Part shown: in pieces, positions 2,836-62,043 of the stretch
How positions within the stretch are numbered: position 1 is the first letter of the stretch
How the letters are laid out: each line of letters opens with the position of its first letter
Assembly: GCF_902652985.1 (NCBI RefSeq)
Contig: NC_047026.1
Coordinates: forward strand, 2,703,307 to 2,767,306
DNA: 64,000 nucleotides
Reading direction: 5' to 3'
DNA from: Pecten maximus
Taxonomy: Eukaryota
Notes under the pieces: model-generated
The model's input: the letters and a program-made list of their open reading frames with translations, nothing else
What the model was told of the DNA's origin: nothing
Database searches by the model: none
Translations under genes and position numbers: made by a program

Positions 2836-4697
2836 CATGCTGATGGCTACATCACTATGGGAACCTGTTACATGCTGATGGCTACATCTCCATGGAAACC
2901 TGTTACATGCTGATGGCTACATCACTATGGGAACCTGTTACATACTGATGGCTTGATCATTATGGGAACCTGTAGCATGTTGATGGCTTGATCATTATTA
3001 GGGGGAACCTGTAGCATACTGATGGCTACATCAATATAAATTAGCTAAATTTTACTGTAAAGTCATTGTTATGCACTGTTGTAACTTCCCTTGACCTTTA
3101 CCCTCTGCAGTAACCTGTAAAGAATATATGTCTGATGTATATCTTGTTGTATGTCATAAGGCCATACAGCAACTAATTGTTGGGCCTTCTGCAGGATTAA
3201 TTGGAGGTGGTAAGGTTCTTCAATGTCTTCTGTTTAGGGGGCATATTGGAGAATCCAAGAAAAAGGCCTATTTATGATCATATTGCCTGTTGATCATAGA
3301 AAGCAAACTGTTAAAGGATAATGAAGACATTGACATAGATCTGAAGCCCCTTAATTTTGCAACAATTGAAATAATCATCCTTTCATGATCATTTGCCCAG
3401 TCTTTCCTATCTTTCTTGTCTGCTGTTTCTTTTTGCAATTTGTTTTCTGACTTCTAATGACCTTGGCTGTTGTAAGAACATTAAATCCATAAAAACAAAC
3501 TCTACCTTATGTTTTATTTTATAAAAAGCCTATACCTCTTCTAATTGGAATTTCTTACAAGCTCATTTGATTCATATCTATTGAGTTCATTGAAAATGAT
3601 AGCAAATGCAACTTCGATTTCATTGTCCTGCAATAATTCTGTCACAAAATTTGAGAAAAAAACTTCTCTCACTGGGTTATTCGCGATGGCATGAAATTAA
3701 TAATTATATAATGATAATAGAATCGTCGATTTCATCACCCCATATAACTGAAAAGTCAGATAACTCTATAGATCTAGTTACACCTGCATTGTGCATGCCA
3801 ATTAAACCAAAGTAATTGGTTTTGATTGAATTCATGTTTGTTAGCTGTCTAATATAACAGAATAATATATATTACTTAAAACGGGAAAAATAATAATTGC
3901 CAGACATTGCTTAAGAATTCTAGAATATATTTAATGCGAGATGTTTTTAATTATTTTTTTCATAATTACACTGACATTTTCCCACTCTGGATAATTGCCT
4001 ATGTGTGATTCTGTTATCGATTATCATATGTCCCTTTGCATGAGACTCTTCAAGAGCAGACGCTCAAATATGACTGATGATGATGATCAACGCATTTAAT
4101 TAAAAAAATAATGAAGATGTGTTGATATATTCTGCCAACGTCGCATTTCAGGAAAACAGAGCGGTCGGTCCATTACACCATCTTTTTGATGTTTACCTTT
4201 CAATGAGCAACAACTACGTCCCCTGTTCTGGTTCATCCATCGATCTAGAACTTCCTTTCACTCCGATAAATAAAATTACAATTAATTCTTCAACTATATG
4301 CACTGTCCACTTGTAGATAGGCCTAATATGTTCACTCTTCTGTCAAACGTCAAAGACACCATACTGTTGGGAGCCCGGATGCAGGGATCGTTCATTGTAC
4401 ATGTTTGTATTCTTTTGAATATTTTATCGGTTGGGTATCTTTAAAACATGAAATATATCAGATTTATATCTTATTAATATTTGAATATAGAAAATAACAA
4501 TAAGAGAAATAATCAAAGGTTAAGTGTAATATATAAATATAATTACTTGAAATCGAAAAGAAAATGCGGAAATAATTGCCCGACAATGACTTGACATTTG
4601 TATTTGCATTACCCCGTCATTCAGACGCTTATTCTTTGATTGTATTCTTTACTGACAAACGTTCAGTTACGCTAGATTTTAATCCCAAACTGGAGAG

Positions 4698-13834: not shown

Positions 13835-13943
13835 AGGTTGAGCGGAGAGACTACCGAGCATGGTACGGACTTGGACAAACCTACGAAATCCTCAAAATGC
13901 ACTACTACTGTCTCTACTACTACAGACAAGCTCAGAAACTCAG
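13835..13943 (+). CDS. CDC23: CDC23 exon 10 ([36 protein letters not shown])
   Basis: Acceptor gttttatcag| and donor ag|gtgagt. Matches human [36 protein letters not shown]. The donor at 13944 is the first copy of a 37-bp tandem array. Confidence 0.9.
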
Positions 13944-15070
13944 GTGAGTCACCATATCATTGTCAGGCTCAGAAACTCAGGTGAGTCACCATATCATTGT
14001 CAGGCTCAGAAACTCAGGTGAGTCACCATATCATTGTCAGGCTCAGAAACTCAGGTGAGTCACCATATCATTGTCAGACTCAGAAACTCAGGTGAGTCAC
14101 CATATCATTGACAGGCTCAGAAACTCAGGTGAGTCACCATATCATTGTCAGGCTCAGAAACTCAGGTGAGTCACCATATCATTGTCAGGCTTAGAAACTT
14201 GGGTGAGTCACCATATCATTGTCAGGCTCAGAAACTCAGGTGAGTCACCATATCATTGTCAGGCTCAGAGACTCGGGTGAGTCACCATATCATTGTCAGG
14301 CTCAGAAACTCAGGTGAGTCACCATATCATTTTCAGGCTTAGAAACTCAAGTGAGTCACCATATCATTGTCAGGCTCAAAAACTCAGGTGAGTCACCATA
14401 CCATTGTTAAACTCTAAAACACAGGTGGGTCACTATATCATTGTCAGACTCGGGTGAATCACCATATCATTGTCAGGCTCAGAAACTCAGGTGAGTCACC
14501 ATATCATTTTCAGGCTTAGAAACTCAAGTGAGTCACCATATCATTGACAGGCTCAGAAACTCAGGTGAGTCACCATATCATTGTTAGACTCTAAAACACA
14601 GGTGGGTCACTATATCATTGTCAGACTCGGGTGAATCACCATATCATTGTCAGGCTCAGAAACTCAGGTGAGTCACCATACCATTGTTAGACTCTAAAAC
14701 ACAGGTGGGTCACTATATTATTGTCAGACTCTGGTGAATCACCATATCATTGTCGGGCTCAGAAACTCAGGTGAGTCACCATATCATTGTCAGGCTCAGA
14801 GACTCAGGTGAGTCACCATATCATTGACAGGCTCAGAAACTCAGGTGAGTCACCATATCATTGTTAGACTCTAAAACACAGGTGGGTCACTATATCATTG
14901 TCAGACTCGGGTGAATCACCATATCATTGTCAGGCTCAGAAACTCAGGTGAGTCACCATATCATTGACAGGCTCAGAAACTCAGGTGAGTCACCATACCA
15001 TTGTCGGGCTCAGAAACTCAGGTGAGTCACCATATCATTGACAGGCTCAAAAATTTGGGTGTGTCACCAT
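13944..15070 (+). repeat. 37-bp tandem array (gtgagtcaccatatcattgtcaggctcagaaactcag), about 30 copies. It begins exactly at the exon 10 donor, and each unit repeats the exon's last 13 nt plus the GTGAGT donor
   Basis: The first unit is the authentic splice junction ctcagaaactcag|gtgagt. Confidence 0.95.
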
Positions 15071-15390
15071 ATTACTGTTAGTCCCAGAAATAGTATTCAG
15101 GTATATATATCACTTTCACTGTTACCACCATAAGAAAGTTAAAGTCAATTCACTGTTACCACCATAAGAAAGTCAATTTAATAATTTCTACCAAAAAATG
15201 GTTAAGAAATGTTCCTTCGAATATTTGGCAAAACTGAAAACAAAGTGAACCATTCAAAGCATGCTTTACAGTATTGATAATTCCTTTAGAATACATTCAG
15301 GTAATTTGTATGGAGGTATACATATGTTGACTCTTGTAGCTATAAACTATGGAATGATTAATTTCTCATGCTTGTAAATGTTCCTTTCAG

Positions 15391-16452: not shown

Positions 16453-18745
16453 AGGGATCTTTCTCAAATTTCATATGTAGGTTCCCCTTGGTGCCTAGTT
16501 ATGCATATTGCGTTTTGAGACCAATCTGAAAACAACATGGCCGACAGGCAGCCATCTTGGATTTTGACAATTGAAGTTTGTTATCGCTATTTCTGAGAAA
16601 GTACTGAAGGGATCTTTCTCAAATTTCATATGAAGGTTCCCCTTGGTGCTTAGTTATGCATATTGCGTTTTGAGACCAATCGGAAAACAACATGGCCGAC
16701 AGGCAGCCATCTTGGATTTTGACAATTGAAGTTTGTTATCACTATTTCTGAGAAAGTACTGAATGGATCTTTCTCAAATTTCATATGTAGGTTCCCCTTG
16801 GTGCTTAGTTATGCATATTGCGTTTAGAGACCAATCCGAAAACAACATGGCCGACAGGCAGCCATCTTGGATTTTGACAATTGAAGTTTGTTATCACTAT
16901 TTCTGAGAATGTACTGAATGGATCTTTCTCAAATTTCATATGTAGGTTCCCCTTGGTGTCTAGTTATGCATATTGGGTTTTGAGACCAATCTGAAAACAA
17001 CATGGCCGACAGGCAGCCATCTTGGATTTTGACAATTGAAGTTTGTTATCGCTATTTCTGAGAAAGTACTGAAGGGATCTTTCTCAAATTTCATATGAAG
17101 GTTCCCCTTGGTGCCTAGTTATGCATATTGCGTTTTGAGACCAATCGGAAAACAACATGGCCGACAGGCAGCCATCTTGGATTTTGACAATTGAAGTTTG
17201 TTATCACTATTTCTGAGAAAGTACTGAAGGGATCTTTCTCAAATTTCATATGTAGGTTCCCCTTGGTGCTTAGTTATGCATATTGCGTTTTGAGACCAAT
17301 CCGAAAACAACATGGCCGACAGGCAGCCATCTTGGATTTTGACAATTGAAGTTTGTTATCACTATTTCTAAGAATGTACTGAATGGATCTTTCTGAAATT
17401 TCATATGTAGGTTTCCCTTGGTGTCTAGTTATGCATATTGGGTTTTGAGACCAATCTGAAAACAACATGGCCGACAGGCAGCCATCTTGGATTTTGACAA
17501 TTGAAGTTTGTTATCGCTATTTCTGAGAAAGTACTGAAGGGATCTTTCTCAAATTTCATATGAAGGTTCCCCTTGGTGCCTTGTTATGCATATTGCGTTT
17601 TGAGACCAATCCGAAAACAACATGGCCGTCAGGCAGCCATCTTTGATTTTGACAATTGAAGTTTGTTATCGCTATTTCTGAGAATGTACTGAATGGATCT
17701 TTCTGAAATTTGATATGTAGGTTTCCCTTGGTGCCTAGTTATGCATATTGCGTTTTGAGACCAATCAGAAAACAACATGGTCGACAGGCAGCCATCTTGG
17801 ATTTTGACAATTGAAGTTTGTTATCACTATTTCTGAGAAAGTATTTAAGGGATCTTTCTCAAATTTCATATGTAAGTTTCCCTTGGTGCCTAGTTATGCA
17901 TATTGCATTTTGAGACCAATCAGAAAACAACATGGCTGACAGGCAGCCATCTTGAATTTTGACAATTGAAGTTTGTTATCGCTATTTCTGAGAAAGTACT
18001 GAATGGATCTTTCTGAAATTTCATATGTAGGTTTCCTTTGGTGCCTAGTTATGCATATTGCGTTTTGAGACCAATCAGAAAACAACATGGTCGACAGGCA
18101 GCCATCTTGGATTTTGACAATTGAAGTTTGTTATCACTATTTCTGAGAAAGTACTGAATGGATCTTTCTGAAATTTCATATGTAAGTTTCCCTTGGTGCC
18201 TAGTTATGCATGTTGCATTTTGAGACCAATCGGAAAACAACATGGCCAACAGGCAGCCATCTTGGATTTTGACAATTGAAGTTTGTTATCGCTATTTCTG
18301 AGAAAGTACTGAAGGGATCTTTCTCAAATTTCAAATGGAGGTTCCCCTTGGTGCCTCGTTATGCTTATTGCATTTTGAGATCAATTGGAAAACAATATTT
18401 CTGACAGACTGCCATCTTGGATTTTGACAATTGAAGTTTGTTATCTCTATTTCTCAAAGTACTGAATGGATCTTTCTCAAATTTCATAAGTAGGTTCCCC
18501 TTGGTCCCATGTATTGCATTTTTGGACCAGTCTGTCCTGAAAACAACCTGGCAAACAAACAGCCATTATCGTTAAATCTCAAATTTCTTATATAGCTAGG
18601 ATTCCCTTGTTTGAAAAGTACTGGAGGGATGTCTCAATTTGCACAGATTAGTAAAATGAAGGGAAAAGTAGAGAAAAGATCAATCTGACATGGAACCTAT
18701 GAAGATCATTCAATGGTGGGCGCCAAGATCCCTCTGGGATCTCTT
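16453..18745 (+). mobile_element. Satellite-bearing composite element: about 13 copies of a 154-155-bp satellite plus a roughly 250-bp tail ending in a GATCCCTCTGGGATC hairpin
   Basis: The period is visible (gggatctttctc recurs at 16455, 16609 and 16764). The terminal sequence cattcaatggtgggcgccaagatccctctgggatct is shared, reverse-complemented, with the elements at 43893, 49865 and 51757. Confidence 0.8.

Positions 18746-19001: not shown

Positions 19002-19050
<49 letters not shown>
18998..19050. repeat. (GT)9 followed by G35, a homopolymer
   Basis: Visible directly. Confidence 0.9.
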
Positions 19051-19849: not shown

Positions 19850-20240
19850 AATTGAAACAGAATGTAGTTAATGCTTAAATAAGCCCATGCCTGGTAAACA
19901 GAATATAGTGTAATGCTTAAATAAGCCCATGCCTGGTAAACAGAATGTAGTGTAATGCTTAAATAAGCCCATGCCTGGTAAACAGAATATAGTGTAATGC
20001 TTAAATAAGCCCATGCCTGGTAAACAGAATATAGTGTAATGCTTAAATAAGCCCATGCCTGGTAAACAGAATGTAGTGTAATGCTTAAATAAGCCCATGC
20101 CTGGTAAACAGAATATAGTGTAATGCTTAAATAAGCCCATGCCTGGTAAACAGAATATAGTGTAATGCTTAAATAAGCCCATGCCAGGTAAACAGAATGT
20201 AGTTAAATGCTTAAATAAGCCCATGCCTGGTAATAAGCCC
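19850..20240. repeat. 42-bp minisatellite, about 9 copies, in CDC23 intron 13
   Basis: aagcccatgc recurs at 19881, 19923 and onward. It generates the spurious ORF 19868..20242 (the MGLFKH repeat). Confidence 0.9.
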
Positions 20241-20400
20241 ACCCTGGTCTATGGCAGTTTATGTGTTGGCCCACTGGGTTGATTACAGGATAAATACGGT
20301 AATAATTAACAATTATAGCTTTTATACAAGTTTAGAGAAGAAAGATGTAGTTGCCTGGTAATTAATCTAAAAGTGAGTTTAACCAATTTTTCACCTGCAG

Positions 20401-25008: not shown

Positions 25009-25012
25009 TTTT

Positions 25013-25051
<39 letters not shown>
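25009..25051. repeat. T14 followed by G29 homopolymer tract, inside the predicted 3'UTR of the giant minus-strand gene (C29-A14 on the mRNA strand)
   Basis: Visible directly. Confidence 0.9.
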
Positions 25052-26494: not shown

Positions 26495-26915
26495 CTGAAA
26501 CATTAAACACAACTAGTAAATAACAGTTATGATATTTTACAATATTTCTATAATATTCATGCATGTTGTTTTTCGACCATTTCTGGGAAGTTTTTTTTTC
26601 TTAATGCTTTACAATGATATCAAGACAAAAAAATGGTGTTTTCTGTTAAATTGTATATGTTTGAAAAAATGAAGTAGGTAATTTTTTTAGAAAAAATATC
26701 ATGACTTTTAACAGTGCTTCCTTGAAAATTGTCATAAGAAAATTTAGGGTAGATACAAATGTAGTGTAAGGAAACTGGAAACATATTATTTCTGTTTATC
26801 AGTTGTTCTGAGCTCAAACATAATTTTAACAACCTATTTTTAGATTAATTAGTTACAGGTTTGTTTAATGACTACATATCTATGCCTATTGCTAGGTTTG
26901 GCCTTAACAACTTAC

Positions 26916-28811
26916 TGTTAGGACTGTCCTGGAGTTTGGCTATACAGGTGTCTTCCGGAGTTTCCGGAGTAAACATCCGAGATTTAGGAGGTGGGACTGC
27001 CTTGGACATGTATCCATAATCAATGTCCGTCTTTGGAGATGGTGACCTTGGCCTCCTCCTAACCTCCTTTGACCTGTCGGGTGACATGCTTATCTCAAAT
27101 GATGTTGTCCTCTTGTTTTCCTGTGACTTTGACCTTGACCTTGACCTTAGAGGTGAACGTGATGATGCAGTACTTTTGTGAGCTGACCTTTGCCTAATAG
27201 GAGAGCGTGTGGTTGACCTGGTGGGTGAGGTCGAGATATTCTTATGCCGTCTCTCTGGTGACATCAGAGGAACTGGGAATGACCCCTCTGTCGTTGTGAG
27301 AGGGGATATAGGGGCTTGTCTGGATAGCCTCCGACACCATTGTGACCTTCCCAGATTTTTTGCTGCGTTGTCGAGGTGGACTGACATGTATGGGAGAAGG
27401 ATACATGGTTGACACAGACTTGTACTTTCGTGACGATGGTGACCTCGATTTCCTTGGCTTTTCAAACTCGTCCACATCTATACCATTATCCTCCATCTGT
27501 GCTAAAAACTCTTCCACGTTTTCTTTATTTCTGCGGTTGAGTTTCGGTTCCTGGTAGATATCGGCGGTACTCGTCTTCGTTTTCTTGTTTTTCTGTTTTC
27601 CTTTCTTTTCACTGCTGAACTTTTCTCCTCTTTGTTTGGCTGAGAACGGCCGATGAAAAATGCTGTCTTCATTTTGCGACTCTGAATCTTCTGTTTGTAC
27701 AGGGCCTTTCATTGGGACCCTCCCTCTTGTTGGGCCCCTACCCTTATCCAGAAATGCTACTTGTCGACTTTTATTTGGAGGCTGGAAGTGTACATCGGTG
27801 CTACTATCTTTTGATGAAGTATCGGCGACAGCAACATTGGAATCTCCCTGCGAGTTGAGAGTCGAATCTGTATCTAAAAGAGTGGACGAATCTGTCATGG
27901 ATATAGACGTTGTTGACGACACCAAGTCTAGTTCAACTCCAATAGCTTTGTCAGAAAGTCTGCCCTTCTGTTTAGCATTGAGCAACATTTCTAATTTCTT
28001 GAGTTTGTCCATTCTACGAATCTCCTTCTTTCTCTCTTTGTCAATTTTATCCCGTTGGTGTATGACCTTGTCGTGGAGTTTAGCCATGAGCGGATCGATG
28101 ACATGACGGCGCCGGTTACGTTTGGCCTTTAACATCAGATCAGATTCATTCAATGCACTCGGTGTTGTTGCTTCAAAGCTTGTGTCCTCTGGTATAGAGT
28201 AAAGTGTGTCTGCACTCTCTCCAAGCTTCTGGGCTCGAGCTGGTTTTGCTTCCTTGTTTCGGTTATTATTCTCCTTATTTTTCTTTTCTTTTTCTGCACG
28301 CTTCTTCTTTTCCTGATGAGCGAGGATCTCGGCGTAACTGCCATTGCTCTCGTCATCTCCACTCAACCTCTTCCTATACTCGGCTTCACGTCTCAATCGC
28401 TCGGCCTCTTTTCGTTGCCTTGCTGATTTTTCCACTTCCTGTTTCTGAGTTGTCTGCCCTTCATCTGCCTCTTCATTCAATGTGTTAAGCTCTTTCATCA
28501 ACCGGTTCTCCTTAGCACGTTCATACGTAACATCGTCCATGTACTTCTGGACAACATGCTTTGTGGGGTTCTTAATTAAGCTCGTAAGTGTATCCATCCG
28601 CGGGGTGTTCATACTGCTCTCGCTGGCATTGCTGGGATCCACATCCTTAAACCTCTGCCACATGTCGTTGATGTTTGGATGGACTGACTCACGATATTCC
28701 TTCTCAAGACTCTCACGAAGGATGACAACGCGCTTGCTGGGAGGCCTCTTGTCGAACTCTTCATCATATTCACTCTCATCGTCCACCAAGGGAACAAATT
28801 TGTGTTGAGAC
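26916..28811 (-). CDS. Giant gene large exon ((R)SQHKFVPLVDDESEYDEEF... coiled-coil K/E/R-rich segment ...SP/RS-rich tail ...LQDSPN)
   Basis: Acceptor atctgtag| and donor a|gtaagt. ORFs 27242..28789 and 26872..27477 overlap by 235 nt in frames offset by 1, a second frame break. The length is 1896 nt, so the boundary phases require a net shift of 1 nt. Confidence 0.6.
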
Positions 28812-29088
28812 CTACAGATGAAAGAAAGATTTCAGTTGTATACAATTTTTTTTTGTCTTCCATACCAAGTCCCTTGAATTACATACTTTTTTCAAAATTC
28901 TCCCAAAATGACCTTTGACCTGTAACCTTTAAACAATGATCAACTGACCCCTGATCTGTACACTTATTCATCTGTTAGTTGACCCCTGACCTGACCTCAC
29001 TGAATTGTGACCTTTGAAGTTTTAATTGACCCCTGTTTTGTGACCCCCAAACAACTATTAGCTGACCTTCGACCCTTTATGCACTTAC

Positions 29089-29189
29089 CTGGCTTTCATC
29101 TCCAGGTCCCTGATCAGTTTGTCCCGTTTCTCCTTCAGCAGTTTTTCTTTCTCCTCATTTATAGCATCCTCAAAGTCAGAATCAGGCAG
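29089..29189 (-). CDS. Giant gene exon (LPDSDFEDAINEEKEKLLKEKRDKLIRDLEMKA)
   Basis: Acceptor ctgacacag| and donor ag|gtaagt. Phase 0 in, phase 2 out. Confidence 0.65.
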
Positions 29190-29894
29190 CTGTGTCAGAC
29201 AATGAACAAGCATGTTATATCATGTGTTAATCTTAGTAAGCAATACTTATAGCAAAGAAAATATGTCACACTGATGTGATGTCATAGATAATTTATGATG
29301 TCATAATAAAAACATGGAAATCACACAATTGTCCATAGGGGAAAATATACCATCCAAGTCGAAAATGGCCTATCTTATGTAGAAATTGATTTGAGTTCTA
29401 ATTTACATTACGCATAAATATGAGTCAAGTGATCAACAGAATCTTACACTTGTGGATATACAAACTGGACATGAGGAATTGAAATTATACATGTTTACAA
29501 ATAATATTAAAGTGATTAAACATTTAACAACAAAGTAGAAAACTTTGGAGATAGAAAACACTTCAAATCTGAAATAAAAATTTAAGCCATGTTAATCTGG
29601 GCCGTTTTCGTTTTTGCGGTCCGAACGGTTAATCAAGTTGGACCGGTGTTGTTCGTTTATGAAATTAAGACGGACCTGGTGATTTTATATTGTTTTTAGA
29701 CGAGCCTTGACAAAGACTTCCAAGGCCTGTATTAACATTTGCAGGTCTGTCAAGATATATGTCTGAAATATTACATTTAGAAAACTGACAAACCGGTTTG
29801 TCCGCATAAACGAACAGGCCCATGCAGTGTCTGGGTTAAGGGGAGATAATCACACTACCCAGCACACAGAGGTAATATATATGTGTATAATCAC

Positions 29895-31335
29895 CTGCTC
29901 AAGCTCCCTAAACTGCCCATCTCCCTCTGGGTCCGTGTAAGCAGATCCTCGAGGATTATCGCGGTCCGAGTTCCTACCCATCACCTCAGCGAAATCTGCC
30001 CCTGGCTCCAAGGGTCGGGCTATCAGCCCTGGGCCTGGTTCAAGAGGTCTGTCTATCCGCGGTTCAAGTGGGTGGTCAGCACCTGGATTGTAGCCTCGGT
30101 CCACTGGTTGTCCAGTTTTATCACAGTAGGTGGCCGTGACCTCAACTCTGCCATCAGCCCTGGTTTTGATTTGCCCACGATGGACTCATGAGTCGCTGAC
30201 GCTCAGCCTGGGTGACATACTCTACTGGTGCATTATCTCCCCTTGATCTGTACCGACCATCAATACCACCGTTATCTGATGTGCCCCGTCCAGTCTCTCG
30301 TCTATTTTGATAGATCTCCCTATCAGAGTGGTAGTTATCTCTTGCAGACGGGCGCTGATAGATGTCTCTTGCATCTAGTTCTCTGTAATGTTCTCCTGGT
30401 TCAAGTGACCTTGACCTCAATCTAGGATTGTAATCAATTTCTTTGTCCAAAGGATCAAATTTCTCTAGATCTTTATAGTCTTTTCCTCTCTCCAAAGATC
30501 TCTGTTGAAGCCTCTCTTCCATGTACTTTGCCATATGATCCTGGGCTTGACCTGGCTTGGGGCTTCCCCTGCCGCCAGCAATCGCTGGGGAATCCATTGT
30601 CGTATGATGAGAGAAAATTGGAGATGGTTGGCATGACAACTCCATTAACCTTGTGTTGTGAACTGGTGAGGAATTCCTGTGACTCTCTGGACTGAGGGCA
30701 ATAAGATCTGTCTCTGACTTTGACCTTGACCTTGTGGCCCCGACAGGGTCCTGTTGGTAGTAGTTCCTTCCTTCAGAGTACCTGTCCAAAGGGTAGACAG
30801 ACAGGTCACCCTCCCGGCCTGGGTGTGGGGTGAAGATGTCGCCAGGGTCCGACCTTGTAGTGACAGACAGGGGATCGTCTTTACTTTCTGTACCACTGTT
30901 AATTCTCTCCTTGGGTCGCGTCTCTGTGGAGGTCAGTCCTGAATAATCTGATCCAATACTTCTATATCTATGACTGCTGGTTCCTGTGTCAGCTGCGAAT
31001 CGGTTGCCAAGGAAGTCATCCCCAGGCACCAGACGGCGTTCATCCCTGTGCTGACTTTCTGATGCCAGTCTGGAGGGATTGTAACTCCCTTGATATTCTC
31101 GGTCTTTCAAGGGCAGATCACTCCGTGAACGAAGGTCCGCAGAAGTTGGTTTTGAGCTCCTGTATGGCACAACCTCATCCTGGTCACTTTCCTGTCTCCC
31201 GGGACGACCTGAGAGGAGTTCAAGGCCACTGTCTGGACGTTGTTCTGTTGAAACAGTGTTATCTCCCCTTGAATTGCCGGAATGCATGGATCTCCTGTCT
31301 AAGCCACTGTCTGTCCCAGACTTATCCCGGTCATC
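29895..31335 (-). CDS. Giant gene large exon (DDRDKSGTDSGLDRRSMHSGNSRGDNTV...YVTQAERQRLMSPSW... then (D/H)RPLEPG repeats ...FRELEQ)
   Basis: Acceptor tgttgacag| and donor cag|gtgatt. ORFs 30154..31287 and 29850..30104 sit in frames offset by +1 around 30104-30156, so the exon holds a frame break: either a 1-bp indel or a very short intron (for example a 55-nt candidate, 30146..30200). Confidence 0.6.
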
Positions 31336-32189: not shown

Positions 32190-33840
32190 CTACAACATGG
32201 GCAACGTCGACAATTAGCTGAAGAAACAACAGTTCTGTGGTCTACATACACATCGACCATTCTGGCCCGAATTAGCACAGTGTGCTTGCAAAGAATGGTG
32301 TACTTATTGAAACTATTCTACGAGATAAGTTCTGTGTCAAATCAGGGTTGAAAGGAAAATCATGTATTTTTTTTTTTTTTTTTTTTCAGAAATTGAAAAC
32401 TATGGATAATATCGGTAGATCAAGTCACACAAGCAACTTTTTCAAATGCGTTGAGCCTTTGATCAAGCATACCCATCCCCTTTCTTGTTGGAAAAAGTGT
32501 GTCTATGTTTGAGCAGTCACACTTAAAAAGAAATGAATACAACATAATTTGGAGTTTGCCTGAAAGTTGTGTTCAGACCACCATTTCTCTGATCTCCAGC
32601 AACGGGTAATCTTATTTGGTTGACAAATAAATATTTAACAAATAAGGAGCAAAATTATTTTACATTGAAATTAAAACAAAATAGCCGAACAGTTTTTTGC
32701 GACTTAATTCATTCTACATTTAATCTTGTAGTAGCTAATATCTCAGATAGAGGCAGCAGTTTCCAATTAATAACTTTGCGATATTCACGGTACCACTGTA
32801 ATTATTTTATTAAGTTGACAGATATTACACATGTAAATATGAGGTTATTATTAATAGGCTATATAGATACATGCGAGTTAAGCACAATTATACAGTCAAG
32901 TTAAAAAGACAATAAATATAAAAGAAGTTAAGAACATTTTCCTAATTATTAACAATAAATCAAATACATCTCCTGCTGTGTTAAAATTAATTTTGCCAAA
33001 TTTTTTCTCTCTCTTTCTGAAATGAAAATTAATCAACCTGTAATAATTGTCACACTTTTCCATCCCTTTTAAGCTTTAAAAACATGCATCCAGTACAAAG
33101 TTATGTATATACACACAAATATACATAAACAGGGCCTACAGGATAAAACACATACTGATATTATACATAAACTGGGCCTTCTCATACAAATACTAGTGCA
33201 GACTGTCAGCTGAAAGAATTACTTATATTACCAGGAATATACGAAATGTACATATAGACCTGCCTACGGTCAGATATACCTGGTATGAGTTTAAAGATGA
33301 CCTACTCAAACACTTGCTATTATAAACAGGGCTTAATTCAGAGGAATATGAACAGACAGCTGAAGTTATTAAATATTAATAAGCAGACACCTGTCAAGGG
33401 TGTTTCAGGATATCTAATTGTATGGGATTAATATTGATCAATTCTTAGCTTTCGTAGCTCAACCTATACCTTCGTATCTACAGTAACAGACTGGACCTAT
33501 TGAATATATCTAATAAACACCAAGTTATACAAAACTGACAGATATTGTTTACCATGCTCATTACTGGAAATGTATGAATTATCGTGGGTTCCAAATTTGA
33601 TATTTAAAATCAGTTGAATTATACATTAAACAGACAGACAGTTATCGTCAGTAAATTACCTATCAATATTCTATAAAGATTAGACACAACTTTTGTAAAT
33701 ATAATTTTACCAATTTAAATTTGTTAAAATCTGTTATGTCACAATTTCTACGAAGCGGAAATAAAAACGACATTTGTTACAGTTACATGTAGCGATTATT
33801 GTTAGGCCTTGTATTATAGAAACAACCAACAACGGGATAC

Positions 33841-34665
33841 CTCGGGGGTCCTTCCACGAGACGCTGTGTCGTCCACCGACATAGTCACTATGGAAACCAT
33901 AATGACGTTCCTTGTAATCACCATGACGACCTAGACCATTCTGATAATCTTTGCGATAATCTCTCATGTAATCAGAAGAAAAGTTAGTTTTTCCGTGATC
34001 ACGCTGGTATTCCTTCCTCTCGGAGTTATAAACATGTGATTTACGATGATCGTTTTCCGAATGAATATCACCGACAACATCGAGTTTGCTATTATTTTGT
34101 TTCTCGTAATCACGTTTGTGTTTATCACTGTCGTATTTGCGATAATCAGAATAAGTTCCAGATTTGTAATCCAATTTCTGTGTATAATCGTTAAATTTGT
34201 TAGGGGTGTCGACCGACGACGTATAACCGTTATATTTGGTTTGTGTGTCGACTGACGAGGTAGAACCGTTATATTTATTCTGGGTATTGGCCGATGGTGT
34301 ATAACCATTATATTTGGTTTTGGTGTCGACCGATGGCGTACAACCGTTATATTTGTTATGGGTGTCGACCGATGGCGTATAACCGTTATATTTGGTTTTG
34401 GTGTTGACCGATGGTGTATAACCGTTATAATTGGTTTTGGTATCGGCCGACAGCGTAGAACCATTATATTTGTTCTGAGTATCGCCCGATGGTGTATAAC
34501 CGTCATATTTGCTTTTGTAATCAGTGGGATAGCTCTTGTAAGTATCGGCGGGAGTGGTCTGGTCGTCACGGAGATATTTGAAAGTATCGTCACTATGGTC
34601 CCAGTTTCTGTATGCGTCGTCTGTAGTACAATAAAAATATTCTCCTGTACTGGCCACAGAAATAA
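33841..34665 (-). CDS. Giant gene exon: a Tyr-rich region with about 9 tandem 12-aa repeats (KYNGYTPSVDTxT), followed by a DY/RK-rich stretch
   Basis: ORF 33734..34657. Donor cga g|gtatcc at 33835-33840 with phase 1. The overlapping ORF 33964..34593 in the other frame hits a stop before the donor. The 5' boundary is uncertain; a weak acceptor attgtag| at 34666 keeps phase with the upstream exon. Confidence 0.5.
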
Positions 34666-36289: not shown

Positions 36290-36329
<40 letters not shown>

Positions 36330-38210: not shown

Positions 38211-38354
38211 CAGGGGGAAATTACGCTAATTACAAACCGGAAGATCACTTTTACCCACAAAAAATATATACAACAACCAAAACCCACACCCCCCCCCCCC
38301 CCCCCCCCCCCCCACCCCCACCCCCCCCCCCACCCCCCCCCCCCCCCCCACCAC

Positions 38355-38412
<58 letters not shown>

Positions 38413-43892: not shown

Positions 43893-44420
43893 TTGGTGCC
43901 CACCATTGAATGATCTTCATTAGCTCTATGTCAGACTGACCTTCTAACTACGTTTCCCTACTTTCTTCTTTTCCTCTTAATAATCTGATAACAAGAACAA
44001 GTGGAACCTATTTGTGAAGTTTGAGGAATATCCCTCCAGTACTTTTCAAGAAATAGCGATGAACAAATTTCAATTCTCAAAATTCAAGATGGTCGCCTCA
44101 GCCATTTTGCTTTCCTGATCAAATATTAAAATCAAATTGGCATAAATAGGGACCAAGGGGTCTTAAACATCAAATTTGAGGAGTATCCCTCCAGTTCTTT
44201 TCAGGAAATAGTGACTACAAACTTCAATTCTCAAAATTCAAGATGGTCGCCTCAGCCATTTTGCTTTCCTGATCAAATATTAAAATCAAATTGGCATAAA
44301 TAGGGACCAAGGGGTCTTAAACATGAAATTTGAGGAGTATCCCTTCCAGTTCAGATGGCTGTCTGTCAGCCATTTTGTTTTTCTGTTCAAAAATCCAAAT
44401 TGAATTGGCACAAATAAGGA
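43893..44420 (-). mobile_element. Degenerate copy of the satellite-bearing element: terminal hairpin end plus about 2.5 diverged satellite units
   Basis: It carries the atcccaaagggatcttggtgcccaccattgaatgatc terminus and units resembling aatagcgatgaacaaatttcaattctcaaaattcaagatggtcgcctcagccattttg. Confidence 0.55.
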
Positions 44421-47439: not shown

Positions 47440-48660
47440 AGGTATGAATAAATAGACTGAGATTTCTGATTATACCAATAAATAAATAAAATAATTACAC
47501 CGAGATATCAATACACTCTGATTACACCAATAAATAAATAAAATAATTACACCGAGATATCAATAAACTATGATTACACCAATAAATAAATAAAATAATT
47601 ACACCAAGATATCAATACACTCTGATTACACCAATAAATAGATAAAATAATTACACCGAGATATCAATACACTCTGATTACACCAATAAATAAATAAAAT
47701 AATTACACCAAGATATCAATACACTCTGATTACACCAATAAATAGATAAAATAATTACACCGAGATATCAATACACTCTGATTACACCAATAAATAGATA
47801 AAATAATTACACCGAGATATCAATACACTCTGATTACACCAATAAATAAAATAATTACACCGAGATATCAATACACTCTGATTACACCAATAAATAGATA
47901 AAATAATAACACCCAGATATCAATACACTCTGATTACACCAATAAATAAATAAAATAATTACACCGAGATATCAATACACTCTGATTACACCAATAAATA
48001 GATAAAATAATTACACCAAGATATCAATACACTCTGATTACACCAATAAATAGATAAAATAATTACACCAAGATATCAATACACTCTGATTACACCAATA
48101 AATAAATAAAATAATTACACCAAGATATCAATACACTCTGATTACACCAATAAATAGATAAAATAATTACACCGAGATATCAATACACTCTGATTACACC
48201 AATAAATAGATAAAATAATTACACCGAGATATCAATACACTCTGATTACACCAATAAATAGATAAAATAATTACACCGAGATATCAATACACTCTGATTA
48301 CACCAATAAATAGATAAAATAATTACACCAAGATATCAATACACTCTGATTACACCAATAAATAGATAAAATAATTACACCGAGATATCAATACACTCTG
48401 ATTACACCAAGAAATAGATAAAATAATTTCACCGAGATATCAATACACTCTGATTACACCAATAAATAGATAAAATAATTACACCGAGATATCAATACAC
48501 TCTGATTACACCAATAAATAAATAAAATAATTACACCGAGATATCAATACACTGAGATTTCTAATTACACTGATACCGATAAATAAAAAAAATAAATACA
48601 CCAAGAAATAAATAAACTGAGATTTATGATTACACCGATAAATAAATAAAATAAATACAC
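47440..48660. repeat. 52-bp minisatellite (48-bp variants also occur; cgagatatcaatacactctgattacaccaataaataaataaaataattacac), about 23 copies
   Basis: The period is visible (cgagatatca at 47501 and 47553). Confidence 0.9.
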
Positions 48661-49864: not shown

Positions 49865-50455
49865 TGTTCTATCCCTTCAGTACCTTCTGTAAAATAGCGA
49901 TAACAAACTTCAATTGTCAAAATACAATATGGCTGCCTGTCGGCCATTTTGTTTTCCGATTAGTCTCAAAATTCAATATCCATACCTAGGCACCAAGGGG
50001 AACCTACATATAAAATTTGAGAAAGATCCCTTCAGCACTTTCTGAGAAATAGCAATAACAAACTTCAATTGTCCAAATCCAATATGGCTGCCTGTCGGCC
50101 ATATTGTTTTCCGATTGGTCTCAAAATGCAATATGCATAACTAATGTTAGCACCAAGAGGAACCTACATATGAAATTTGAGAAAGACCAATTCAGTGCTT
50201 TCTGAGAAATAGCAATAACAAACTTCAATTGTCAAAACCTAAGATGGCTGCCTGTCGGCCATATTGTTTTCCGATTGGTCTCAAAATGCAATATGCATAA
50301 CTAGAAACCAAGAGAAACCTATATATGAAATTTTAGAAGATCCCTTCAGTACTTTGAGAAATAGCGATAACAAGAATTGTTTACGGATGGAGGGACGGAC
50401 GGACCACGGACGCAGGGCGATTTGAATAGCCGATGGTGGGTTAAAAACACCTGGG
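49865..50455 (-). mobile_element. Satellite-bearing element, short copy: about 3.5 units of the 155-bp satellite, then a GGAC-repeat and cagggcgatttgaatagcc terminus
   Basis: Reverse complement of the 16453-18500 satellite. Its end is shared with 52995-53110. Confidence 0.75.
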
Positions 50456-51756: not shown

Positions 51757-53115
51757 AAGAGATCCCAGAGGGATCTTGGCGCCCACCATTGAATGATCTT
51801 TATAGGTTCCATGTCAGATTGATCTTTTCCCTACTTTTCCCTTCCTCTAAGTCTTACTTATCTGTGTAAATTCAGAAACAGCCCTCTAGTACTATTCAAA
51901 CAAGGGGAACCTATATATAGAATTTAAGATTTAGCTATAATGGCTGTCTGTCGGCCATGTTGTTTTCGTATTGGTCCCAGTATGCAAAACTAGGCACTGA
52001 GGGGAACCTACATATGAAATTTGAAAAAGATCCCTTCAGTACTTTCACAGAAATAGCGATAACAAACTTCAATTGTCAAAATCCAAGATGGCTGCCTGTC
52101 AGCCATGTTGTTTTCTGATTAGTCTCAAAATGCAATATGCATAACTAGGCACTGAGGGGAACCTGCATATGAAATTTCAGAAAGATCCCTTCATTACTTT
52201 CACAGAAATAGCGATAACAAACTTTAATTGTCAGAATCCAAGATGGCTGCCTGTCGGCCATGTTGTTTTCTAATTAGTCTCAAAATGCAATATGCATAAC
52301 CAGGAACAAAGAGGAACCTGCATATGAAATTTGAGAAAGATTCCTTCAGTACTTTCACAGAAATAGCGATAACAAACTTCAATTGTCAAAATCCAAGATG
52401 GCTGCCTGTCGGCCATTTTGTTTTCCGATTGGTCCCAAAATGCAATATGCATAACTAGGCACCAAAGGGAACCTATATATGAAATTTGAGAAAGATCCCT
52501 TCAGTATTTCCTCAGAAATAGCGATAACAAACTCAAATTGTCAAAATCCAAGATGGCTGCCTGTCGGCCATGTTGTTTTCCCGATTGGTCCCAAAATGCA
52601 ATATGCATAACAAGGCACCAAAGGGAACCTACATATGAAATTTGAGAAAGGTCCCTTCAGTATTTCCTCAGAAATAGCGATAACAAACTCAAATTGTCAA
52701 AATCCAAGATGGCTGCCTGTCGGCCATGTTGTTTTCTGATCGGTCCCAAAATGCAATATGCATATCTAGGCACCAAGGGGAACCTACATATGAAATTTGA
52801 GAAAGATCTCTTCAATACTTTCTCAGAAATAGAGATAACAAACTTCAATTGTCAAAATCCAAGATGGCTGCCTGTCGGCCATGTTGTTTTCCGATCAGTC
52901 CCAAAATGCAATATGCACAACTAGGCACCAAGGGGAACCTACATATGAAATTTGAGAAAGATCCCATCAGTACTTTCTCAGAAATAGCGATAACAAGAAT
53001 TGTTTACGGACGGAGGGACGGACGGACGGACGGACGGACGGACGGAGGGACGGACGGACGACGGACCACGGACGCAGGGCGATTTGAATAGCCCACCATC
53101 TGATGATGGTGGGCT
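51757..53115 (-). mobile_element. Satellite-bearing element, apparently complete copy
   Basis: It starts with (A)|TCCCAGAGGGATCTTGGCGCCCACCATTGAATGATC, runs through about 7 satellite units (51900-52990), then a (GGAC)n tract and cagggcgatttgaatagc, and ends in an 11-bp-stem hairpin CCCACCATCtgatGATGGTGGGcTAA. Confidence 0.75.
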
Positions 53116-59061: not shown

Positions 59062-62043
59062 TTGGCAAGCTGTGGTGTTACGGTATCTTTGAGTTCCAGT
59101 TCCCTCGAGGGTCGCGCTGGTGATGGTTCCAATTCACGGTAAACCTCTTCATCTTTGCTCTCTGTATCGCCCCGACTTGCACCCTGGTCTTGCCATGCCT
59201 CTCTGGTGACGCCTGGAGTTACCTGCCCTTGGTTGTCACGGTACACAGGGTAGCAGTCGATGACCTGACGGTATGGTGTCCGTAGGTTTATACTATGGTC
59301 AAACGTACGGTCAGTAGTTTTCTGGATCTGAGACGATAGGTACTTTTCCGCATTCCCAAGGGCATTGAAGGGCGCATGCTTGCCGCCCTTCAGGAAGGAC
59401 AACTCCGATGCAGCTGTTTTGTCAGGATGCATACTTCCGTTCAAAGAACTCATCTGCGACCACTCCAGTTGTTTCTTTATGTCCCTGTCACGAACTATAA
59501 AACTGCCGTTTGGGGATTCGTAGCTGTCGTAGCTAGAGTCCATCTTTGGCCGGTTAGCAATCCTCTCCATCATCACTCGTTCCTGTTGCATAGCTTCCTC
59601 CAGTATACCAAACACTTGTTTCTGGGGTGGTTCTTTAGTGAGAATGGTGAAAACACGACTCGCCAAGCCAGAGGTGTCCAACGCCTCTTCATCTCCTTTC
59701 TTAGACTGATACTTTCTAATAATCTCCTCCACATCAGGTGCAAGGTTTCTTGGCCGACCATCCGCATCCAGCTCGGGTTCCGAATCCAGTTGGTCACCTA
59801 CAATATCCACTTTCCTGCGTCCGTGATCGGGCGACGGCCTCTCATCGTCTGTGTTCGGCCTGGATTCCCCAAGTGCAGTCAGACCTAGTGTATCAGTTTC
59901 GGTTTCTGTGTCGTTTTTCATAGTCCCAAGGAACACCCCTGCCCCACTGACATTTATTCCAAAGTCAGCTGCATGGTCCCAGAGGAGTTTACGGTTTCGT
60001 GCACTCTCAGGGATTTGAAGAGAAACTTTCACCACTTCTGTCCATATCTGGGCCTCTAGACCTCGGAGCCTGACTGCTGTACTCGGTCTCCCCTACCTGA
60101 TGGTGGAGGCTATTCTGAATGTCCTGAAGGTCCCTCTGTAACATTGAGTAGTCTATTTGTACAGGATTACCATTAAATGGTTTATCGCTATGTCGTGTTT
60201 GTTCCGGAGGTGGGTACTGCATTTTTTCGACGTATGCTGTTTTTGCTAAAACATTCTGGACTCTTTGACCAAGAGAATCTCCTGAATCCGTACTGCGATC
60301 TGAATTAAGACGAGCACGCGTCTCCTCAAGAAGCCTCTCAGTCTCTCGTTCTTGTCGATAGTAGCGCTGCAAAGACTCCAATTCAGCAGCACTTTCATTA
60401 CTGAGGTCCCTTTCCTCTGTCACAGACTTGAGGTCAAGCTTCAGACTGCCAGCACTAGCAGAATCTCCCTTCACCAGCAGTTTAGCCACTTCTTCACCGA
60501 GGGAAGAGGTCATGCTCTGTTCAGATTTTGACAAATTTTCCGTATTTGACCCTAAGGAACCAAGACTTCGAGACTGACTCTCCAGGTTTTCCTTCACTTC
60601 CTCGATCTTTCTCTCGGCCTGGACTACATCGTAGGGAGGTGGAGGTGGTCTAGAGTCTATGGGACATGGTAATGGCCTATCCATGGACCCTAGTGGTCTA
60701 GACTCCAGTAATGGCCTATCCATGGTCCCTAGTGGTCTAGAATCTAGTAACGGTCTGTCTTTGTTGTGCTGGTCGCCGTCACCAAGACCTAACGACTCTC
60801 TACTGTACAATTGTTTATGAAGAGAAGCCCCTAATGAACTGGCATCATCAAGAAGTTTTGCGACACGATGTGACATGTCACTGCGGGACTGCGTATCTGT
60901 CCCTTGAGTTGTAGTGGCAGTATCTGTAGTTGCTAGGGGTGCAGTCATTGTCTGACGATGACCGTTTTCTGACGTCACACTCTGAAAATTTTCTGATTTC
61001 TGTGTTTCCGAGTCGGCGCGAGGCAGCCCTATCAAACGTTCTCTGTCAAGTACTGGAACATACACAACATCTTTCCGTTTTTGTCCCGTTTCTGAGTCTG
61101 CTGCTGATGAAGACTTCTTCAGAGCATCATTCAAACCTGACTCACCAGGTTTGCTACCTACTAACCTAGAATCAGATACAGAACTCGTCTGAGATTTTGA
61201 CTCTCGACCTTGAGACCTGTGATTATTATCTGAACCAGAATTTCTGTCATTCTCCTCCAATGATCGCCTCAAAACTAGAGTAGGCGCATCAGACTTTCTT
61301 TGTCCATTTTCTGATTTGAATTCTGGTAGGGCCTCTCCCGAATCTCTCCTGGTTAACCTTTGACTTTCATAACCTTGACCCCCTGGCACCTGCATGCCTC
61401 CATCACGACTTTGGTCAGAAAATATTGCATAAAACTGCTGGGTAGAAGGTTGGGAAGATCCGCTGGTTTTGTCAGAGTCTTCACCTGATCCAGTGTCAGA
61501 GCCTGACTTAGCACTCGGAGCACTGTCAGTGTTGGATAAAGCACTAGCCATAGTATTAACAGTCTGTGTGCTGTGGTACCCAGAGTCCTTGCCTCTCTGT
61601 GTATTTACAGAGGCCATTGTGTCTAACATTGGGTTTCTTGCAGGACCTTCACCTTCAAGTGACCTTGGGGTTGGTTCAGGGTTATAGTCTGATTCATAAG
61701 GGTTCCATTCGACATCCGACATCCCCGTCGCGGATTCCGGGTAATTAGCATAAACAGCCCCCCTGGGATCACCAGTCGACCCCTTATGGTCTCCATCCGA
61801 GTTGCTGTCACTGTCCCCAGAACCCACCACACACCTCATGGGGGAGAAATTCCCTGAGATAAAGTCCTTAGATACTTCTGTTATAGCGGTAGACAAGGCC
61901 TCATCATTAATACTTCCACCATCATGAGCCGAGTCATATCCTGACTTGTCATCCAAAGGGTACTGTGACAAACTAAGGTTACCTAAAACAGAAAAAGACA
62001 ACACCGTTACAATAAGTACCCGGTACCATGATTTCATATACAT
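59062..62043 (-). CDS. Giant ALMS-motif gene, exon 1. ATG at 62043 to donor GTAAGT at 59056-59061; the N-terminal MYMKSWYRVLIVTVLSFSVLG stretch resembles a signal peptide
   Basis: ATG with an in-frame TAG two codons upstream. ORF track 60007..62043 (678 aa) and 59058..60035 (325 aa) lie in adjacent frames. A 49-nt GT-AG intron (60048..60096, CAG|GTAGGG...CCCAG|ATA) joins them exactly and yields the phase-2 exit required by the next exon. The product is Ser/Asp/Arg-rich with DRPLL(D/E)SRPLG repeats. Confidence 0.6.

Follow-up and report, generated by a model that had tools for sequence, protein, structure and literature searches.

Large low-complexity proteins with an ALMS motif (PF15309) at their C-terminal end, among them ALMS1, CEP295/KIAA1731 and C10orf90, belong to a motif family whose centrosomal association is described in PMC2965680. 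Frameshift artefacts, for their part, are documented in long-read and collapsed-haplotype assemblies (PMC12007338 and PMC8445201), where isolated 1-nt errors at short runs split conserved genes into open reading frames (ORFs) lying in adjacent frames, and where such errors are found and localised by orthologue comparison. Both descriptions bear on a giant gene carried by the minus strand of a 64,000-nt stretch of the Pecten maximus genome (contig NC_047026.1 of assembly GCF_902652985.1, positions 2,703,307 to 2,767,306; this whole stretch is hereafter the window, and all positions below are window coordinates). The reading frame of this gene is interrupted at three places, each of which is reduced by comparison with orthologues to exactly one surplus base, and these surplus bases are, with high probability (about 0.85), single-base insertion errors left behind in the assembly consensus. 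The resemblance to the documented long-read errors lies in the isolated 1-nt lesions at short runs, in the splitting of a conserved gene into adjacent-frame ORFs and in their localisation by orthologues; here, on the other hand, all three lesions are insertions and sit at runs of 2-3 bases. We infer that the extra bases are technical and absent from the animal's DNA.

The gene is multi-exon, extends at least from 63.3 kb to 25.1 kb and lies in an AT-rich eukaryotic region (GC 30-47%). Its predicted product is large, mostly disordered and of low complexity, and carries the ALMS motif at its extreme C-terminus; the gene is accordingly classed as putatively centrosome-type, of the ALMS1/CEP295/C10orf90 type. 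Outside the motif, the Pfam scan detected no similarity to a named family. On the corrected C-terminus, PF15309 was found with E=3.2e-27 and 96 bits against a cut-off of 27, over profile positions 2-123 of 133, while a Pfam scan of the raw ORFs gave no significant match, the motif being visible only after joining the downstream exons. These are four exons on the minus strand at 26494-26214, 26050-25873, 25630-25567 and 25230-25131, with 76-92% tblastn identity to the main orthologous protein presented below. The ALMS motif, which is intact and the sole recognisable domain, lies downstream of all three breaks; consequently, the uncorrected reading would lose it.

A query made of the concatenated ORF translations retrieved a protein of 1450 aa at 73% identity (P0001), encoded by a 4397-nt Logan contig (L001) from sample SRR19746225. 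This protein carries PF15309, falls into one cluster (identity of 90% or more) with XP_069140865 of Argopecten irradians, and in its middle part differs from XP_069140868 by one residue across the shared stretch. L001 maps onto the window as a spliced transcript from 46372 to 25131, and the A. irradians comparisons reported here were made with this transcript contig together with RefSeq protein sequences. The 5' exon of the gene (61983-59061, minus strand), which holds the third break, matches A. irradians XP_069109137 and XP_069140861-64 at 72-75% identity. These matches by themselves place the window in a pectinid scallop distinct from A. irradians. Break 1 is bridged by P0001, P0008 (XP_069140868) and P0010, break 2 by P0001, P0024 (XP_069140865) and P0009, and the third break by P0003, P0005, P0026 and P0004. 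Both flanks of breaks 1 and 2 align to orthologous proteins at 60-89% identity and, therefore, the breaks are not chance ORF patterns.

Break 1 lies in a long coding exon, exon X (29895..31335, minus strand; acceptor AG at 31337-31336, donor GT at 29894-29893; L001 514-1822). As the original prediction stated, the ORF at 30154..31287 ends with MSPSWANQNQG at a TGA (30156-30154, minus strand). The analysis further showed that, directly below a stop at 30188-30186, the +1 frame opens and then reads RADGRVEVTATYCDKTGQPVDRGYNPG on its way to the donor GT. The break amounts to one surplus base in CCAGGG (30158..30163, minus strand), which is the sole uncompensated gap of a length other than a multiple of three (3n) in the exon X alignment and which creates the premature TGA of frame A (30154..30156, minus strand) at the ORF end. 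Removing A30161 or one C restores WANQN-R-ADGRVEVTATY. In codons, the stretch AAT AGT AAC CGT GCT GAT GGC of A. irradians, which encodes N S N R A D G, corresponds to AAT CAA AAC C[A]G GGC TGA in the window. The orthologues cross this point in frame with no residue missing, as WAN(S/Q)NRADG(K/R)V(D/E)VTATYCDK, and a third species (P0010, contig L005) is in frame from MSPTWAN to VEITANYCDKTGQP.

Break 2 lies in exon Y, also a long coding exon (26916..28811, minus strand; acceptor AG at 28813-28812, donor GTAAGT at 26915; L001 1924-3704). The minus-strand ORFs 27242..28789 and 26872..27477 do overlap at 27242-27477 in adjacent (+1) frames as had been proposed, the length of the overlap being 236 nt with the stop counted instead of the 235 given initially. 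One surplus base in ATT CCC A GTT (27274..27277, minus strand) accounts for the sole net change of frame when exon Y is aligned, and the premature TAA of frame A2 (27242..27244, minus strand) follows 11 codons past it. At this site A. irradians reads ATT CCT GTC CCT CTC ATG, a second bivalve species (contigs L003/L004) reads CGG CCT GTA CCC CTG ATG, and the window reads ATT CC[C] AGT TCC TCT GAT G; the orthologues cross in frame, with no residue missing, as SHNDRGVIPVPLMSPERR. The third break, placed at 60007-60035 in the 5' exon, is likewise a +1 shift, with one surplus base in AAT CCC T GAG (60009..60012, minus strand) as the sole net frame change relative to contig L006. Here SFSSN(P/A)ESARNRK is read in the orthologues, as against AAT CC[C] TGA GAG in the window.

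Global nucleotide alignments against L001 were made for exon X (31335-29895) and exon Y (28813-26915). All alignment gaps in the compared exons are of 3n length or locally cancelled, except that each exon retains a single surplus nucleotide, near 30161, 27277 and 60012. Deletion of positions 30161 and 27277 yields 1353 stop-free codons across seven exons with consistent splice phases, and deletion of position 60010 yields 974 stop-free codons in the 5' exon. The phase argument depends on a 101-nt mini-exon (29089..29189, minus strand), encoding LPDSDFEDAINEEKEKLLKEKRDKLIRDLEMKA-R, that sits between exons X and Y and was missing from the initial exon list; it was recognised by blastn and tblastn against L001/P0001 at 90% nucleotide identity and has AG/GT boundaries. 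Once it is included, the exon phases fit only if each long exon drops one base, so that the earlier claim of a net 1-nt shift demanded by the flanking phases is correct provided that this exon is recognised. The comparison of orthologues across the break points, which had been suggested as a check, was thus carried out, and at least two independent orthologues bridge each site without missing or extra residues. Each break is exactly one base.

If these bases are consensus errors, a long-read-based assembly would have left one-base insertions at the three sites, with the collapse of two divergent haplotypes possibly worsening such errors; each surplus base would then carry translation into the +1 frame and to a nearby stop, and the gene would be functional, its true mRNA being expected to be one base shorter per site and to encode an uninterrupted protein. 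The window contains 0 Ns and assembled homopolymers of up to 56 bases, which suggests a long-read assembly. Over about 7.8 kb of compared coding sequence, the only lesions are three of +1 nt, with no deletions, longer indels or nonsense codons, and this uniformity at short C/G runs looks more like a technical signature than a mutational spectrum. Among the options first offered for the breaks, that of homopolymer-type assembly indels is therefore retained for its indel part, one extra base being present in or next to a short C/G run, while the term homopolymer-type applies only loosely to runs of 2-3 bases. A Dcm-like CCWGG context was considered and dropped, as it matches break 1 only.

Several observations weigh against an origin in the assembly. 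The lesion contexts (CCC+A, CCC+T and CC+A+GGG) involve runs of 2-3 bases, short for classic homopolymer errors, and the most parsimonious surplus base at break 1 is an A between CC and GGG that extends no run at all. Three errors in about 7.8 kb, or about one coding indel per 2.6 kb, imply rather poor polishing, and no second conserved gene by which the assembly indel rate could be gauged was identified in the 64-kb window. The protein database searches returned no match above about 75% identity and no same-species sequence. Finally, nothing within the window alone proves the lesions technical, a point in favour of the first of the rival explanations, namely that the extra bases are real germline mutations.

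In that case the locus would be a very recent pseudogene or a loss-of-function haplotype encoding a truncated protein without the ALMS motif, which we regard as improbable, although it is the best surviving of the alternatives. The sequence as given does carry three frame-disrupting lesions. The dN/dS values, obtained by the Nei-Gojobori method against the A. irradians transcript, are 0.145 upstream of break 1 (361 codons), 0.066 between breaks 1 and 2 (594 codons) and 0.055 downstream of break 2 (313 codons), the minimum thus lying beyond the breaks; dS against A. irradians is 0.9-1.4, near saturation, and with dS near 1 a loss of function confined to the final few tenths of a percent of the divergence would leave no trace in dN/dS. 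Relative-rate counts of unique amino-acid changes, with a more distant bivalve as outgroup, gave 19 changes for the window against 38 for A. irradians in the 5' exon, 15 against 32 in exon X and 12 against 21 in exon Y, that is 46 against 91 when summed, or about half as many in the window lineage. The gene is under constraint on either side of every break. Since the window copy is not evolving faster and its dN/dS is low, the gene is neither a pseudogene of long standing nor a decaying duplicate. The decaying pseudogene copy listed in the original prediction is likewise unsupported, as there is neither an excess of changes nor a nonsense codon and the splice sites are intact.

The same evidence counts, with less force for a very recent event, against real mutations in general. 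There are 0 nonsense codons in 2327 corrected codons and all inspected splice sites are canonical. Indels that arise naturally usually show a bias towards deletions and a variety of lengths, unlike the three lesions observed here, which are all 1-nt insertions, and three independent lesions without other damage are improbable. Were the bases nevertheless real, they would mean that a scallop has recently lost a centrosomal ALMS-motif gene.

A far less probable explanation is that the animal does carry the surplus bases and that its ribosomes decode them through programmed +1 frameshifting, with tRNA-Pro slipping on CCC_N as in antizyme or prfB. At the known programmed +1 sites, UCC_UGA_U in antizyme and CUU_UGA_C in prfB, the P-site tRNA re-pairs in the +1 frame. 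Two of the three window sites consist of CCC followed by one base, at which a P-site tRNA-Pro can re-pair in +1 (CCC_A to CCA, CCC_U to CCU), and at the site near 60010 the next zero-frame codon is UGA, giving CCC_UGA_G, a classic shift-prone context; together with CCC_A near 27277, this constitutes a resemblance only. In contrast with the antizyme and prfB sites, none of the shifts is conserved, A. irradians and two other species being in frame at all three places. Break 1 has no in-frame slippery codon, as AAC CAG GGC UGA cannot re-pair to the conserved N-R-A-D, and at break 2 CCC is followed by AGU, a plain sense codon, so that the ribosome would meet no stop on which to stall. Moreover, a metazoan gene with three programmed +1 sites would, as far as we know, be unprecedented. 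That the gene stays constrained because ribosomes shift at three real surplus bases is hence most doubtful, even though a metazoan gene requiring several programmed +1 frameshifts would follow if it were true.

The least probable proposal, which was the second option of the original prediction, takes each break for a very short spliceosomal intron, 3n+1 nt in length (55 nt at 30200..30146 for break 1, 76/85 nt at break 2), and it fails since the orthologous mRNA and proteins keep every residue around each shift point without a gap: the A. irradians transcript, the genome-derived proteins and two other species hold residues from inside every candidate, the 55-nt candidate would cut out the conserved RQRLMSPSWAN...RADG, the residues adjacent at the shift points (N-R-A-D and I-P-V-P) leave room for an intron of 1 nt at most, and the GT..AG pairs of phase-correcting length (14 at break 1, the pair 30200/30146 among them, and 51 at break 2) are expected by chance and uninformative. 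The breaks are not introns.

Taken as consensus errors, the breaks are not a novel biological feature, and their value is that of an annotation-quality flag. Annotation of the sequence as given would yield a truncated protein or a pseudogene, with the sole recognisable domain lost, and the orthologue comparison supplies the exact positions for correction or read inspection. If one residual coding indel per 2.6 kb is typical of the assembly, gene prediction would be affected genome-wide.

The orthologous gene in A. irradians is represented in RefSeq by three neighbouring models, XP_069140861-64, XP_069140866-68 and XP_069140865 (P0026, P0029 and P0024), named 'serine-rich adhesin for platelets-like', 'uncharacterized protein' and 'DNA ligase 1-like', respectively. 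The last two of these are joined by L001 in one ORF and, consequently, the A. irradians gene is probably under-merged and misnamed in RefSeq. A more distant homologue (P0002, 38% identity; positions 187-2847 of L002, Logan sample SRR30522649) stops abruptly past a K/E-rich stretch, and a second ORF on the same strand is found at 3650-4168 of that contig, about 800 nt downstream of the end of P0002, so that a frame break, or an intron left unspliced, may be present in L002 too. In the window itself, an open frame of 307 aa at 33734-34657 (minus strand) contains KYNGYTPSVDT-like repeats of about 13 aa with a 39-nt tandem period. The ends of this frame match an extra exon of A. irradians isoform X1 only (P0029, XP_069140866) and are not in L001; it is probably an alternatively spliced exon carrying the repeats.

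The scans of the window for tRNA and Rfam families, run as quality controls, gave no matches. Poly-C tracts are present on the plus strand, with 38 C at 36291-36328 and, at 38289-38411, about 123 nt in which C is interspersed with occasional A. Both then run into the identical gaaaataaccacgtttacagtatct, which suggests that a repeat element ending in a homopolymer is present here in two copies. Long runs also occur as G35 at 19016-19050 and as T14G29 at 25009-25051, the latter directly 3' of the last mapped exon. A 42-nt tandem repeat at 19855-20242 (9 copies, 96% identity) yields a 124-aa 'PGMGLFKHYTIFCL' ORF on the minus strand, which was rejected as a gene, being a repeat artefact of the array. 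Large tandem arrays occupy introns and flank at 723-2625, 13930-15090, 16453-18505, 47465-48553 and 51940-52996, with periods of 35, 37, 155, 52 and 155/466 nt. A unit of 155-160 nt occurs in one orientation at 16453-18505 and in the opposite one at 49871-50373 and 51940-52996, with a probably related 154-nt unit at 44020-44352, and looks like a dispersed satellite or a repeat derived from a transposable element (TE).

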